Virus record (IMG/VR): IMGVR_UViG_2529292913_000008
Reading direction: 5' to 3' (one strand)
Source: a virus
Taxonomy: Duplodnaviria; Heunggongvirae; Uroviricota; Caudoviricetes
DNA length: 64,000 bases
The notes beneath the pieces were generated by a model. That model had not been told where the DNA came from. It did no database searches and saw nothing but the letters and a program-made list of their open reading frames with translations. This document shows, one piece after another, positions 12,680-17,544 of this stretch. A program made the position numbers and the translations under genes. Position 1 is the stretch's first letter. Every line of letters begins with the position of its first letter.

Positions 12680-13186
12680 TTATTGTTGATGGAGAAGCGC
12701 GTTTTCATACTCCCTGACCATTAACGTAAGTACGCCGTGACTCCTGAAAACACGCGCCACTTCAATCTTATCTTCCAGCGCGAACGCAATTTTACTTAGA
12801 CCAATTTTCTTCAGGAGATCAATCTTTGCTGGACCGTCATTTCTGTCATCGGTGGCAGGACGCATAGATAGCAAAGGCTCAGCCCCATTTGTTACGTGCT
12901 TACGCAACCAGGCTCGTGTTTTATCCCTGGCTATCTCACAGCGCCCGGTTACAAACCAGAGGGTGTAAATGCCGGACAACTGGCGCACCATATCAATAAC
13001 TGGAGTGATGGGAGCATCAGTGTCACAGGCAAGGTTAAACTCGTTCCAGTGCTCTGTTAATGCACCTTTGCCAGGTGGTGGAAGTAAATGCAGCCTGTCT
13101 TCCGTTGCCTCTGATATCGTCCCATCAATATCTACTATGACGATGTACGGACGTTCCTGGTGTGCGTGTTTATTGAAAATACTCAA
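12680..13186 (-). CDS. HAD-superfamily phosphatase-like protein
   Basis: 168 aa with N-terminal VIVDIDGTIS (DxDGT) motif. Confidence 0.6.
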   Translation of the reverse strand: MSIFNKHAHQERPYIVIVDIDGTISEATEDRLHLLPPPGKGALTEHWNEFNLACDTDAPITPVIDMVRQLSGIYTLWFVTGRCEIARDKTRAWLRKHVTNGAEPLLSMRPATDDRNDGPAKIDLLKKIGLSKIAFALEDKIEVARVFRSHGVLTLMVREYENALLHQQ

Positions 13187-13258
13187 ATGCCCTCCTCATT
13201 GGACGAAAAAAATGCTGGTGGGAGCACTCCACCAGCATTAAAAGTGACACTGTAACTA

Positions 13259-14521
13259 TCAGCGAACGTAAATAGTGCCGCCGTTCTCTTTTTCCCATGC
13301 ATCGCTACGTGCATAGCAAACATCGAGAAGTCTTCTTGCCGCAGTTTCCTCTAAACCCAATTCGACAACCAACTGCTCATGACGGCGGGTAACCACATCA
13401 AACAGGGTATGCAGCCCTTTAGTTGCCAGATCATCAATGAATTCCGGTTCGAACGGCAGCTCTGCATCTGCTAACATAACCTCTTGCGCCCACTCAACTC
13501 GACGGACCAGTTCCGGGCGGCGGCTTTCCATCTCTTTACAGATCAATTCATGGAAGAACTCTACCCAACCTTCCGGCTGGAACTCGCGGAAAATTGCCAA
13601 CGGCTGGAAGTTTGGCATCAACCATTCGTTGATTCGGATATCAATGGCATAGCCCATGTCGCAGCAGAACTGATAAGCAAAGTCCAGCTTAGAAACGATA
13701 TAAGGACGCTCGTTATTGAACTCTTTAGGCGATGAGATCCCATAAGCCAGGAGGCGCGGGAAGAAGGAGATTTGCCCTAACGTCGGATGAAGTTTGCTTG
13801 CAGGGAAACGGCGCTCAGTAATGCCATACATTTCCTTCTTGAGCGTCGCAAATTTGGCATTCTCATTAACCAGCGCGGTAACCTCTGCTTTTTATTAGCA
13901 AATGCCACGCGCGCTTCGCTTGCATCTTTAATAGTTTTTTTGAGCTGTTGGTTAAGGTCGGCGACCTGCTTACGCAGTTCCTGTCGCTCGCTTTTAGCTT
14001 TGTTATAGCGTTTCTCAAGGTTAAAAGGATCAAGTTTCATGATCTCTTTATATTGAGATTTTAGCGTTGAAATCTGTGAGTTCCGCAGTTCAACCATCGC
14101 GGTCATTTCATTGAGTTTTGTTTCCAGCTCAATGCTTATACGTTCGGCATTATCAGCACGCTGGTTGGCGTCATGCGTCGCATCGTCGATCGCGTCCTGT
14201 TGCTGGCGTTTCAAATGTTCAATTTGCAGCTGAAGCTCTTCAATTTCTTTACCCTTCAGACCGAGATCCAACTGCATATTTTCAGCTGCATCTACCAGGG
14301 AGTTATGGCTATCAGCTTCTGCGTTATAAACATCAATAAGCTGTGCGTGAAGCATCTCCGCTGACTGAACCGCATTATCAAAAAAAACGTGCTGTGAGGT
14401 CATCACAACTAACGCGGCGTTGCGCGGCCCGGATGTTCTGGATAATGGCCGGGATACCGGCATTCAGGACATCAGGGATAGATACATTTTCGATTGATTG
14501 GTTTTGTGCTGAAGTGCTCAT
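13259..14521 (-). pseudogene. coiled-coil protein gene split into three frames by two homopolymer indels (about 420 aa if repaired)
   Basis: frame changes at the A8 run 14380-14387 and T5 run 13889-13893; removing one T and adding one A gives a continuous ORF MSTSAQNQ...GGTIYVR. Confidence 0.5.
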
Positions 14522-14522
14522 T

Positions 14523-14741
14523 TCAAAGTTCCGTATTAGCTTGTGCTTCGGTCATTTTTCCTAAGTATGAAGGAGGAAGGACTACGCAATTTGTATCCAG
14601 TCCCTCACCTATGGCAGCCTGTAAAATTCTGGCTAAGGTGAGTCTCTTGTTGCGATACCTGGTGATGACATGCCTGATACCGCCGGTCGGCGTAACAAAG
14701 GCGATCAGCCAGTAGTGATATTTCCGTCGGAATGGCCACAT
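14523..14741 (-). CDS. hypothetical protein (72 aa)
   Basis: ATG at 14741 about 65 bp downstream of an operator-like box; no family recognised. Confidence 0.4.
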   Translation of the reverse strand: MWPFRRKYHYWLIAFVTPTGGIRHVITRYRNKRLTLARILQAAIGEGLDTNCVVLPPSYLGKMTEAQANTEL

Positions 14742-14771
14742 AGTGCACCTTTTTGATTGCTCTAATAAAAA

Positions 14772-14798
14772 ACGTGATGAGTGTACATCACGTTTTAA
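14772..14798. terminator. bidirectional rho-independent terminator
   Basis: ACGTGATG-AGTGTAC-CATCACGT flanked by an A-run and a T-run; between two inverted operator-like boxes. Confidence 0.5.
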
Positions 14799-14822
14799 AA
14801 ATATGGAATTATTAGAGCAATA

Positions 14823-15524
14823 TTATTCTGATTCTCGCTCAAAAAACGAGCTAATAAGGGGAAGCCAATCCTCTGACACTTCGCGAGGTCGCGGTTTGCC
14901 GTGGAAAAAGATTATTCGGCAGTCCTTTGGTAATGCCCCATTCCCCCTGGAGTAACGCGCGCTCGCATATTTTGAACCAGGTTCCACAACATCGGCCTTG
15001 TAACTTACAAACCATCCTGGATACAGATCCTGAAATGCTGGTGTATCATCGCCCATAACCTTCCGTAAGAACCCCTGATCACCCCAGCACTCAGTAGTGA
15101 CACAACGAGAAATCCAACCTTCCGGATCTTGCCAGAATGAACTCCAGATATGCGCTTTTACACTATTTGGTATCCACAGGGCACCGCTACCACGATATTG
15201 TGGATGGTAAAAATCCCTAAGCATGGTGAAGCTGGTTGGTGGATTCTCAAGGATTGGGCGTATATCACCGGCAATAACTGTGTCCAAATCCAGATAGAAC
15301 AGATCATCTGTTATATCCGGTCGGAACAACTCGATTTTCGCCCACCAGCCACGGCACTTTTGCCACTGGTTGATCAATGGGACAACTTTGACGCCAGGTA
15401 CATGTAAACGCTTCAGGTCTGTCAGGCAAATAATTTCATAGCCTTTTGGCAGTTGATTAACCAGCCACTGCACATCGGAAGCGTTATAGTCACCACCAGA
15501 GCGAAAAACTAAAGCAATCTTCAT
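14823..15524 (-). CDS. hypothetical protein with Rossmann-like N-terminus and DxD motif (possible nucleotide-sugar transferase)
   Basis: 233 aa; [13 protein letters not shown]... and [12 protein letters not shown]; stop overlaps ppp start (ATGA). Confidence 0.5.
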
Positions 15525-16213
15525 GCTGCACCATCACCTTTCACTTTCATCAATGTCAGGTTTCCGCAAAATACGGCACCAGTGTCGATATACTGCTGAT
15601 TCCAGAATGTCTTCGGGCTTTTCACCGGAGTGTGACCAAAGATAAAACGATCTGCGCCCGAAATTTCGCCACCAATATCATCCATCGAATCACTGATACG
15701 CTCGCGCGCCCAGACAACGTTGAAAAGCGGCACCTCCTTACCGAATTGGTATTCATTATCCGGATAGTCGGCATGGGCTATAACGATAGTTTCTTGCCCG
15801 GTGTTCAACTCAATGATATAGGGCAGACGCTTTACCAGCTCCACCAGCGCCCAGGCTAATATTTCCTGATCAGTGTCCAGCATGAAGAACCATTGTCCGC
15901 CATTCATTAGCCAGTTATTCACGTTGCCATCTGGACTTAACGCATCAATCATCAGCCGCTCATGGTTCCCCATCACTGCCCTGAACCAGGGCATCTGCAA
16001 TAGTTCCAGACATTCGACATTTTCAGTACCGCGATCGATAAGGTCGCCGACCGATATCAGTAAATCCTGCGCCGGGTCAAAATCCACACGATGGAGTTCG
16101 GACATCAGTCTGGTGTAGCAACCATGCAGATCACCAACAACCCAGACATTCCTGTATTTGGTACCGTCGATACGGTGATAAATTGTGGGTGCCATCATGT
16201 ATTCTTCAGCCAT
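15521..16213 (-). CDS. ppp: serine/threonine protein phosphatase (calcineurin-like metallophosphatase)
   Basis: GDLHG, GDLIDRG, GNHE motifs. Confidence 0.85.
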
Positions 16214-16821
16214 TCTTTAAGAGTCATCTGCGGAATACCTCCCATTTTCCCGCATGAAACAACGTCAATCTGTTCACGCGCAGACTGGAATAACAAAGGC
16301 AGGTGACTTAGATTTTTTGGCGTGCCGCCGGAGTGAACGCGTAGTTCTTGCGTAGCGTCAACGCCCACCAGGGCTACATGTTTGAATCCGATATGGAAAG
16401 CCAGGTTCAGAGCACCATATGCACTATTGCCGCTGGCAATTTCATTCTCATCTTCGCAAAGGCCGAAATGTGCGGACCAGCGCCACGCCCACCACTCGGG
16501 AGAATTCGTATTTTTTGGCTCTGTGCCGCGTTCAGCCACACGACGGAAGCACAGAATGCCGTCTCTGACTTCACGTTCTTTAACATCGGGTAGTGCCATG
16601 CAATAACAAACACCACGGCGACGGCGGCCACGACCAACGCGCCGCATATTGTCTGGCGATGGATCAAGTGTGAAAAAATAAGAAGCGCGGTTAAGCCAGT
16701 CGATAGCCCCATTGACCGCTATAATCGGCACTCCGCGCGGCGCAACAAAGTTTGCGGCGCTTGGGCCACTGCCGACGATAATAACGCGATCACTGCCTCT
16801 AAATTTATTCTTGGGAAACAT
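16195..16821 (-). CDS. putative glycosyltransferase, sialyltransferase-like/DUF115-like (paralog 1)
   Basis: motifs [30 protein letters not shown]; resembles Cst-II type (GT42) motif order from memory. Confidence 0.55.
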
Positions 16822-17348
16822 TGAATTGCACTGCTCCTACTTGCATTCAAAATATGTAAATCTGCGTGTTTTTTGCGGGTATCCAGGAACTGCTGTTGCC
16901 ATTTTGAAATAGACACCTGCGTTGGATTCCGTAGGGCTTGAGGGTGCGCGCCATGCCAATGAAGGCCGTTTTGCAGAGAACAGTCATAGCCGACTAATAC
17001 CACTACTTCAGCCCCTGATTCAGCAGCCAGACTGATAGCCTGCGCGCCGCTATTTACCCCTTCCGCCGGTCTACAATATCGCCTGTACTCCAACGAAAAT
17101 GATTTCGCCGCCGCCAGGTTGGCTGTCACTTTGCGGAACCTCCCTCCCGGTATGGTGGAACCGTATTGCTTCCACCATGACAAATCACCGGCGTATAAGG
17201 CATAAATGTCATCGAACATCAGCCAGGAATTGTTAACCGCAATGATTGAACAGCCAGTTTTTTCTATAGCAGCACAGTCCTCACGAGTGAGTGACGGACC
17301 GCTACCGACACAAAAAACAGTCCTAGTCGCCCTGGGTGGTATGTTCAT
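16719..17348 (-). CDS. putative glycosyltransferase, sialyltransferase-like/DUF115-like (paralog 2)
   Basis: motifs FCVGSGPS, IIAVN, NSGAQAISLA, LVGYD; start taken at internal Met (track start 17381); overlaps paralog 1 by about 100 nt, boundaries uncertain. Confidence 0.5.
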   Translation of the reverse strand: MNIPPRATRTVFCVGSGPSLTREDCAAIEKTGCSIIAVNNSWLMFDDIYALYAGDLSWWKQYGSTIPGGRFRKVTANLAAAKSFSLEYRRYCRPAEGVNSGAQAISLAAESGAEVVVLVGYDCSLQNGLHWHGAHPQALRNPTQVSISKWQQQFLDTRKKHADLHILNASRSSAIQCFPRINLEAVIALLSSAVAQAPQTLLRRAECRL

Positions 17349-17544
17349 TCTCAGCTGCAAATTCAGCCTCCAGGCGAGCATTCATTTCAGCGATTACCGG
17401 GTCCACTTCAGCATCTGCTTCCTGTTCATTACGCGGCATGATCGATGCCAGCGATTCATAATTAACCTTGAATGACACTATTATTCTCCCGATGTTAATG
17501 TGCGCTATATCAAAGAGCACATGTGCACTAATTAATTTATTATT

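Follow-up and report, generated by a model that had tools for sequence, protein, structure and literature searches.

A predicted glycosyltransferase module of phage P1 that recurs among phages of Gram-negative bacteria

Four genes of phage P1, pmgO, pmgP, pmgQ and dbn, are present in a 64,000-nucleotide stretch of Caudoviricetes DNA (IMG/VR record IMGVR_UViG_2529292913_000008; hereafter the window, always meaning the whole stretch), and comparisons across phages suggest that they are the P1 copy of one mobile four-enzyme module carried by many phages of Gram-negative bacteria. The genes and their glycosyltransferase (GT)-like annotation are already public, and what is new here is that the four appear to be one portable system. 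[quoted passage not shown] The features on which the argument turns are as follows.

pmgO: 16719-17381, minus strand; predicted DUF115/MptE-like, WaaZ- and sialyltransferase-like transferase (paralog 1)
pmgP: 16195-16821, minus strand; predicted DUF115/MptE-like transferase (paralog 2)
pmgQ: 14823-15524, minus strand; predicted GT8-type retaining GT-A glycosyltransferase
dbn: 23316-24290, minus strand; predicted GT4-like (GT-B type) glycosyltransferase, here 6 kb away from pmgO, pmgP and pmgQ
ppp: 15521-16213, minus strand; lambda-type Ser/Thr protein phosphatase
pap: 12680-13186, minus strand; HAD phosphatase of the PNKP type
pmgN: 17323-17520, minus strand; small opening gene of the pmgN-pmgO-pmgP-ppp-pmgQ operon, with the P1-annotated start at window position 17478

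Identity of the region

Judged by its sequence, the region is the pmgN-to-pap block of phage P1, which was catalogued long ago. Window positions 12400-18400 match 19 P1-type phages at 95-99% identity, with 80% or more of the query covered (megablast), among them P1 itself (98.3%), P7, RCS47 and SJ46, and positions 12491-18400 are 98.3-98.7% identical to P1 DNA. This near-identity indicates that the genes are real and conserved rather than chance open reading frames (ORFs). Gene names are those of the P1 annotation carried onto the window, whose coordinates equal those of our locus L001 plus 9490. In the ORF listing, the genes form a compact minus-strand run that has a type I restriction gene at one end and, at the other, a tail/baseplate operon diverging on the plus strand.

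An initial annotation of the window had described a cluster of glycosyltransferase-like genes with two phosphatases at 12680-17381, and every gene that it listed is present, on the minus strand, at the coordinates that it gave. Its HAD-type phosphatase is pap, its DxD-motif Rossmann protein is pmgQ, its Ser/Thr phosphatase is ppp, its two paralogs with GSGPS...IAVN...LVGxD motifs are pmgP and pmgO, and the GT-B-like gene that it saw after ban is dbn. Profile and fold searches put all four sugar-transferase-like genes in glycosyltransferase superfamilies, as had been supposed, and the grouping of the distant dbn with the other three agrees with gene order and gene fusion in other phages.

The RefSeq, P7 and RCS47 annotations already describe pmgO, pmgQ and dbn as GT-like. 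Specifically, RefSeq labels pmgQ "glycosyltransferase" and pmgO "alpha-2,3-sialyltransferase", and the RCS47 record labels dbn "glycosyltransferase family 4". The P7 record names the genes hdmA-D, for "head morphogenesis", gives dbn as "glt, putative glycosyltransferase" and likens HdmB to orf7 of Pseudomonas phage D3. Many public records of PmgO and PmgP homologs carry the label "norphogenetic protein", a typing error that spread from the original P1 note on pmgM.

One module across phages

The gene order pmgO-pmgP-pmgQ (O-P-Q) recurs in Citrobacter, Pseudomonas and Alloalcanivorax prophages, in Xanthomonas and Stenotrophomonas jumbo phages, and in many IMG/VR contigs. For example, a Pseudomonas prophage (L004) has O-P-Q and a small GT-A-like gene between capsid and head-completion genes, and a metagenomic phage contig with SU10/P22-type portal matches (L003) has an O::P fusion, Q and the same small GT-A-like gene after its lysis cassette. 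O-P-Q follows lysis genes in a Citrobacter rodentium prophage (L008), the Alloalcanivorax prophage (L007) has the order P, methyltransferase, Q, O, and an Ochrobactrum prophage (L006) has P-Q between a head-tail connector and a head-completion gene. The module is present in jumbo phages and also in E. coli phages of 111-116 kb, and every host named for an isolated phage or a prophage with the module belongs to the Proteobacteria, those of the Xanthomonas/Stenotrophomonas jumbo phages and Pelagibacter included. Among 50,697 phage records searched with tblastn, PmgP is found in 27, PmgQ in 32 and Dbn in 22.

The E. coli phages IME392 and EP_H11 have the order O-P-Dbn-Q, with Dbn in the slot that ppp holds in P1, and their Dbn is 51% identical to that of P1 (BLASTP, E 1e-99); another locus (L097) has the order O-Dbn-Q. 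A scan of viral contigs for Dbn turned up only P1-like copies. Three kinds of gene fusion are also found: PmgO::PmgP (P0044; L003 10001-11131, 376 aa), PmgO::Dbn (P0288, 522 aa), and a TylF-type O-methyltransferase joined to PmgQ in ORF373 of the Xanthomonas jumbo phage XacN1 (L027 5630-6946, 438 aa). In IMG/VR, variants of the module come with a methyltransferase, either FkbM (10 loci) or class I, and a Sulfotransfer_2 enzyme also occurs. Together, gene order, the three kinds of fusion and the sugar-tailoring partners suggest that the proteins cooperate on a decorated glycan, and they argue for reading PmgO and PmgP as transferases rather than kinases.

Two further genes accompany the module in some of these phages. 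Directly after it in XacN1, ORF372 (L027 6954-10220) encodes 1088 residues, among them a long linker rich in Pro, Thr and Ser, and matches a PKD-like domain weakly; Pro/Thr/Ser-rich segments are often O-glycosylated, and this protein is a candidate acceptor. The small GT-A-like gene that follows PmgQ in two unrelated phages (L003 11757-12335 and L004 9254-9835; 192-193 aa) would be a fourth transferase-like member there. It has a WVDCD/WLDVD motif and a weak Nucleotid_trans match, with 30% identity between the copies (E 5e-30); no counterpart was found in P1 or the window.

PmgO and PmgP

Compared as a pair by BLASTP, PmgO and PmgP match at E=0.003, and alignment of the two families by hhalign gives a probability of 98.3% (E 1.5e-14), which makes them true paralogs. 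Both have SGPS, IAVN and LVG(V/Y)D, and PmgO has in addition an invariant HWHG-x-H motif. Against the MptE-like family PF01973, both window proteins stay below the gathering cut-off of 34.6 bits, PmgO with 23.2 and PmgP with 20.9. All 33 of the 33 members of the PmgP family that were scanned have such sub-cut-off matches, the best at 8.6e-7, while the fusion homolog P0044 exceeds the cut-off with 44.6 bits and several homologs bear precomputed PF01973 matches.

Searched as single sequences against solved structures, PmgO and PmgQ gave nothing significant, and profiles and models were required. The model of PmgO has the single Rossmann-like fold common to Maf, Cst and MptE, and PmgP would have it too. 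The closest solved structure to modelled PmgO is the Maf glycosyltransferase (PDB 5mu5), and the next matches of the model are an archaeal pterin pyrophosphokinase, a GT42 sialyltransferase and thiamine pyrophosphokinases. The model also has 27 predicted fold relatives in BFVD at E up to 0.001, none with a characterized function. The initial reading of the two paralogs as transferases agrees with profiles, fold and context, but the DUF115 fold is also found in pyrophosphokinases, so this reading leans on context as well as fold.

Several comparisons point to WaaZ. P0044 has a faint precomputed Pfam match to WaaZ_KDO_III (PF27901), and E. coli K-12 WaaZ itself matches the MptE-like family at 6.9e-7. 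By hhalign, a combined PmgO+PmgP profile aligns with 11 enterobacterial WaaZ sequences at 94.8% probability (E 5e-8, 189 columns); the single families match WaaZ weakly whether it is taken alone or as the 11-sequence alignment, with PmgP at 32.9% and PmgO at 25.6% against the alignment and about 13 bits. Among 14 K-12 waa proteins, the PmgO and PmgP profiles select only WaaZ, at low bit scores. The link to WaaZ (CAZy GT73) would be one at superfamily level and is no proof of a common function.

With respect to the donor, E. coli K-12 is not known to make sialic, pseudaminic or legionaminic acid, which implies that the donor of PmgO and PmgP must differ from that of Maf and Cst. The only CMP-ulosonic donor known in K-12 is CMP-Kdo.

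PmgQ and Dbn

Motifs and modelling suggest that PmgQ is a GT8-type retaining GT-A glycosyltransferase. It combines a GT-A fold with a DxD motif in which D79 and D81 (D79-L-D81) are invariant, and it has an H208-G-x-P-R-P motif. No Pfam match was found at E up to 0.1, and so none to Glyco_transf_8. Its profile selects the GT8 enzymes WaaJ and WaaO among the 14 K-12 waa proteins, at low bit scores. The best structural matches of the PmgO and PmgQ models are to enzymes of protein-glycan synthesis, namely Maf, Gat1, GlyE and glycogenin.

Dbn scores 25.1 bits on Pfam Glycos_transf_1 against a cut-off of 26.4, its IME392 ortholog is just above this cut-off (26.5 vs 26.4), and 12-13 of 51 Dbn homologs give sub-threshold matches to the same family. 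In an alignment of these 51 sequences, out of 256 family representatives, H238, E240, E248 and G253 (324-residue form) are invariant, and the resulting H-x-E-x7-E-x4-G pattern is, by sequence, the EX7E signature of GT4 enzymes. The sole significant PDB profile match of Dbn is to 8xsg, a "putative glycosyltransferase" (E 0.001), over about 40 residues. The longest dbn ORF opens at 24314, 8 codons upstream and abutting ban. Most of the family representatives listed start at residue 9 (MNILIIG, 24290), which is the likelier start and agrees with the limits 23316-24290 given by the initial annotation.

The two phosphatases

Ppp and Pap are readily assigned to families. Ppp scores 59.3 bits on Metallophos (PF00149; cut-off 21.5), matches the NinI-like phosphatase PHROG at 5e-113 and NCBIfam PRK11439 at 3.3e-81, yet below the equivalog cut-off of the latter, and its translation has the PPP-family motifs GDLHG, GDLIDRG and GNHE. 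Pap scores 44.1 bits on HAD_PNKP (PF25109; cut-off 27.6), has the PNKP-type motif I D19-I-D21-G-T23 (DIDGT), and matches PHROG 415 "polynucleotide kinase" at 5.7e-56 and, weakly, the RNA-repair protein Pnkp1 in PDB. By family, Pap is a PNKP-type HAD phosphatase and not a class B acid phosphatase.

The initial annotation had counted both phosphatases with the cluster. Both are indeed there, but neither belongs to the conserved module, from which they are absent elsewhere. Between P and Q, ppp is lacking in two P1-like relatives and in every other phage context examined: the P1-like locus L079 has the order pmgM-O-P-Q-pmgR, and in the P1-like Cronobacter phage JK004 P and Q are 44 nt apart. On this comparison of loci, ppp is an insertion specific to the P1 lineage. 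The pap gene is under a separate operator, and a comparison of 34 diverse loci that bear the module showed no counterpart of it alongside. As such, Ppp and Pap are probably unrelated neighbors outside the transferase module; a role for them in feeding the transferases was rejected on the ground of this absence, and they can be studied apart from the transferases.

In P1 and in the window, the genes of the operon overlap (pmgN/pmgO by 59 nt, pmgO/pmgP by 103, pmgP/ppp by 19 and ppp/pmgQ by 4), which suggests that they are co-transcribed, ppp included. This bears on an alternative in which PmgO and PmgP are pyrophosphokinases of the MptE or thiamine-pyrophosphokinase type, acting on a nucleotide or cofactor, perhaps with the neighboring phosphatases. 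The Pfam family that they match takes its name from MptE, and the co-transcription of ppp would fit. Set against this are the best fold match, which is to the glycosyltransferase Maf, the WaaZ homology over the full length of the domain with the combined profile, the fusion to or adjacency with GT4, GT8, sugar methyltransferase and sulfotransferase genes, and the absence of the phosphatases from the module in every other phage examined. We therefore regard a pyrophosphokinase pair as very improbable.

Genomic position and expression

The module opens 0-2 ORFs after the major capsid gene in 10 loci, with capsids of two unrelated families (PF05065 and lambda gpE PF03864), a count that exceeds the number of independent events because the IMG/VR loci of this kind are partly related to each other. 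The genes ahead of it are lambda-type gpD and gpE head genes in L089 and L097, and many other contigs have an HK97-type capsid gene and a small Ser/Pro/Lys-rich ORF (cluster C9) in that place. Another 6 loci have the module among their head-tail connector genes, where it overlaps its neighbors, and in 3 loci it comes after the lysis cassette.

The consensus of the operators bound by the P1 repressor C1 has 10 matches in the window, where 0.42 would be expected by chance. The operators around the genes discussed here are the following.

OpmgT (Op88): 12664-12680, minus strand; consensus match and P1 annotation, abutting the pap stop codon
OpmgRb and OpmgRa (Op86b/a): 14756-14772 and 14805-14821, between pmgQ and pmgR; consensus matches and P1 annotation
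Oppp (Op83): 17522-17538, plus strand, upstream of pmgN; P1 annotation, with the sequence kept in the window
Further C1 operator of P1 kept in the window: 18429-18445; consensus match

P1 also has an annotated late promoter upstream of pmgL, and the operon lies downstream of it. Together with the conserved operators, this promoter suggests that lysogens keep the genes silent and that they are expressed in lytic growth. Lysogenic conversion was considered as a role in P1 and rejected on account of the C1 operators.

A P1 study with 29 single-gene knockouts (Gonzales et al. 2022; PMC9024508) has pmgO, pmgP, pmgQ, pmgS, ppp, pap and dbn on its list of strains. In 24 of the 29 knockouts (all except pmgA, B, C, G and R) plaquing is normal and anti-restriction is unchanged, and the sections consulted name none of the genes discussed here among P1 virion-associated proteins. 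In a CRISPR interference (CRISPRi) screen, pmgO, pmgP, ppp, pmgQ, pap and dbn are likewise non-essential (PMC10695390). For pmgN the two sources differ: it is essential by CRISPRi (efficiency of plating 1.4e-2; PMC10695390) and dispensable in the knockout study (PMC9024508). A simple polar effect does not account for this discrepancy, given that knock-down of the downstream genes pmgO-pmgQ has no effect. Beyond these two screens, our literature search found no study on the function of these proteins or of the module.

What the module may modify

Three possible targets had been named at the outset, DNA, virion proteins and host surface glycans, and of these DNA is the least likely. In that reading the transferases would glycosylate phage DNA (or RNA) to evade restriction in the manner of T-even phages. 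The element does carry and face restriction systems, with the hsd island next door, and the module lies near a DNA ligase and polymerase X gene in IME392 and near ribonucleotide reductase in XacN1. By contrast, most phages have it in head operons and not in replication modules, and known DNA glucosyltransferases are not among the top fold matches. P1 DNA is not known to bear sugar-modified bases, and P1 relies on Dar proteins. Given also the unchanged anti-restriction activity of the knockouts (PMC9024508), DNA glycosylation is the least credible of all the explanations that we weighed.

The module might instead take over or disarm the cell by glycosylating one of the host's own proteins, for instance a translation factor, a defense protein or a surface appendage, by analogy with Maf acting on flagellin or with GT-A toxins acting on host proteins. 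The flagellin glycosyltransferase Maf is the top structural match of PmgO, and dispensability in the laboratory is seen with many anti-defense genes. This explanation leaves the placement in head operons unexplained, and four transferases with methyl- and sulfotransferases suggest an elaborated oligosaccharide, not a single inactivating sugar. No anti-restriction change is reported for the knockouts (PMC9024508), and we consider a host-protein target improbable.

The main rival is remodelling of the core of the host lipopolysaccharide (LPS), which we judge rather unlikely. Here, the WaaZ-like PmgO and PmgP would add extra Kdo to the inner core, while PmgQ (as WaaJ, WaaO or LgtC) and Dbn (as WaaG or WaaB) would add hexoses. 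The receptor of P1 is the terminal core glucose, and a new core glycoform lacking or masking the phage receptor could limit superinfection or the loss of progeny on debris. This reading is consistent with the WaaZ comparisons given above (the combined profile, the faint WaaZ_KDO_III match of P0044 and the MptE-like match of WaaZ), with the selection of WaaZ, WaaJ and WaaO among the waa proteins, and with hosts that are all Proteobacteria and have the Kdo2-lipid A acceptor and CMP-Kdo in common. With waaZ overexpressed, a changed inner core, a truncated outer core and less O antigen are also reported (Frirdich 2003). However, the single-family similarity to WaaZ is weak (26-33%, ~13 bits), and in structure PmgO and PmgQ are best matched by the protein-glycan enzymes. 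Late or head operons with overlapping genes, and occurrence in jumbo phages, are unlike the prophage-expressed genes of LPS conversion, C1 represses the module in P1 lysogens, and LPS from the last minutes of infection is a small share of the outer membrane.

We return to glycosylation of the virion, which we prefer as a working explanation held with some reserve. In this mechanism PmgO and PmgP would transfer a 2-keto-3-deoxy (ulosonic) acid from a CMP-sugar, CMP-Kdo in K-12, and PmgQ and Dbn would add hexoses from UDP-sugars with retention. The acceptor would most likely be a surface-exposed structural protein (the capsid or another virion protein), such that progeny particles would bear a small decorated glycan. 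An acceptor of this kind is favored by the placement in late and head operons, by the presence in jumbo and other large phages, and by the fact that Maf, Gat1, GlyE and glycogenin, which match best in structure, are protein-glycan enzymes. It is also favored by precedent: the capsid of chlorovirus PBCV-1 is glycosylated (A64R), and virion glycosylation is reported for mycobacteriophages (Freeman et al. 2023).

Several points weigh against virion glycosylation. The module does not adjoin the capsid gene in P1, IME392 or XacN1, and kinship among the capsid-adjacent IMG/VR loci inflates the count of independent events. It moves among phages with unrelated capsid sequences, so that a protein acceptor would need generic recognition. 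WaaZ, the sole functionally studied sequence relative of PmgO and PmgP found here, acts on LPS, the donor sugars are predicted ones, and protein-attached Kdo has no known precedent. No glycosylated protein has been reported for P1, and no glycosylated virion protein for any module-bearing phage; the published P1 virion proteome did not seek glycopeptides.

A wider claim, that P1 and many proteobacterial tailed phages decorate their virions, probably on the capsid surface, with a short Kdo glycan that is sometimes methylated or sulfated and is made in the cytoplasm by a portable set of DUF115/WaaZ-like, GT8 and GT4 enzymes, is one that we put forward as somewhat doubtful. If true, this would be the first time that a virion glycosylation system is seen in phages of Gram-negative bacteria and that Kdo is found linked to protein. 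Geneticists use P1 as a standard tool for E. coli, yet about a dozen of its "pmg" genes are still without function, and a vague annotation now becomes a testable question, namely whether these genes glycosylate virions or the LPS of infected cells. If virions are glycosylated, this would matter for the stability of the particles, for adsorption and, in therapy, for the immunogenicity and clearance of the phage, and it would offer a new enzyme set, possibly with Kdo, for protein glycosylation. With LPS as the target, the module would have a receptor-remodelling function in the lytic phase.

Other features of the window

The remaining genes around the module are listed below.

pmgS: 13259-14521, minus strand; coiled-coil protein, here broken into separate reading frames
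pmgR: 14523-14741, minus strand; P1 annotation and PMC9024508
pmgM: 17545-18123, minus strand; P1 annotation
pmgL: 18126-18371, minus strand; P1 annotation, DksA-like zinc finger
ban: 24314-25684; neighbor preceding dbn
hsdM: 6356-7912; type I restriction-modification system (hsd island)
hsdS: 7909-9177; same system
hsdR: 9239-12415; same system
Insertion sequence (IS) transposase: 3218-4426

Our family search of the window proteins found no match for pmgN. The product of pmgM matches the VRR-NUC nuclease family of Pfam at 21.2 bits, just under the cut-off of 23.8, and a Holliday junction resolvase PHROG at 4.8e-27. That of pmgL, which the initial annotation had called TraR-like, matches the DksA-like zinc finger PHROG at 1.7e-13 and is of the DksA/TraR type. 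On these family matches, neither is "morphogenetic".

In P1, pmgS is a single gene of 420 codons. Alignment to P1 shows that two homopolymers differ in length and break it here, a T-run having one T too many at ~14387 (T8 vs T7) and an A-run one A too few at ~13893 (A5 vs A6), so that about 165 codons are out of frame before the frame is regained; the resulting ORFs are 13259-13831 and 13777-14463. The cause is either homopolymer sequencing error or a true pseudogene.

The site of P1 pmgT/pmgU/pmgV is filled in the window (3218-12491) by the IS transposase and a type IC-like hsdM-hsdS-hsdR island at 6356-12415, which is the hsd island of the initial annotation and a type I restriction-modification system; its HsdR carries an EcoR124_C domain. 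P1 homology begins at 12491, and the P1 record likens this junction to what lies downstream of hsd in EcoDXXI and R124. OpmgT, which controls pmgT in P1, now faces the hsd island, pmgT having been replaced.

Comparison with known systems

Like the lambda Ser/Thr phosphatase (NinI), Ppp has GDxHG, GDxxDRG and GNHE, and the P1 record gives 64% identity to the lambda enzyme; Pap passes the HAD_PNKP model and has the DxDxT of the phosphatase domain of T4 and bacterial PNKP. Compared with GT8 enzymes (LgtC, WaaJ/WaaO, glycogenin, Gat1 and GlyE), PmgQ has only 233 residues and lacks the Glyco_transf_8 match. Dbn has EX7E in common with GT4 enzymes (Glycos_transf_1; WaaG, MshA), while for its N-terminal half no family match was detected.

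For PmgO and PmgP, the N-terminal GPS motif and the SG...G-x-D segment of Cst-II (Campylobacter GT42) align, although by sequence the similarity falls short of significance (E 0.1-0.3). With ~200 residues, against 632 in the matched Maf chain, PmgO and PmgP lack most of Maf beyond the shared domain. WaaZ, which is linked to addition of a third Kdo to the E. coli K-12 LPS core, is of the same superfamily, and both it and the phage proteins have below-cut-off MptE-like matches. It has the same order of motifs, SGP(S/T), (I/V)AVN, D, then a small-residue helix and G-x-D, and with the combined profile the alignment spans the whole domain. WaaZ lacks the HWHG-x-H motif of PmgO at that position, and its gene belongs to the chromosomal core cluster, with LPS as the substrate, whereas pmgO and pmgP are phage genes in late operons.

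Virus-encoded glycosylation of virions would be analogous in having several virus transferases, methyltransferases in the chloroviruses, late expression and dispensability for plaques. The mycobacteriophage and chlorovirus systems use another enzyme set, while the P1 module would combine DUF115/WaaZ-like, GT8 and GT4 enzymes in phages of Gram-negative hosts.

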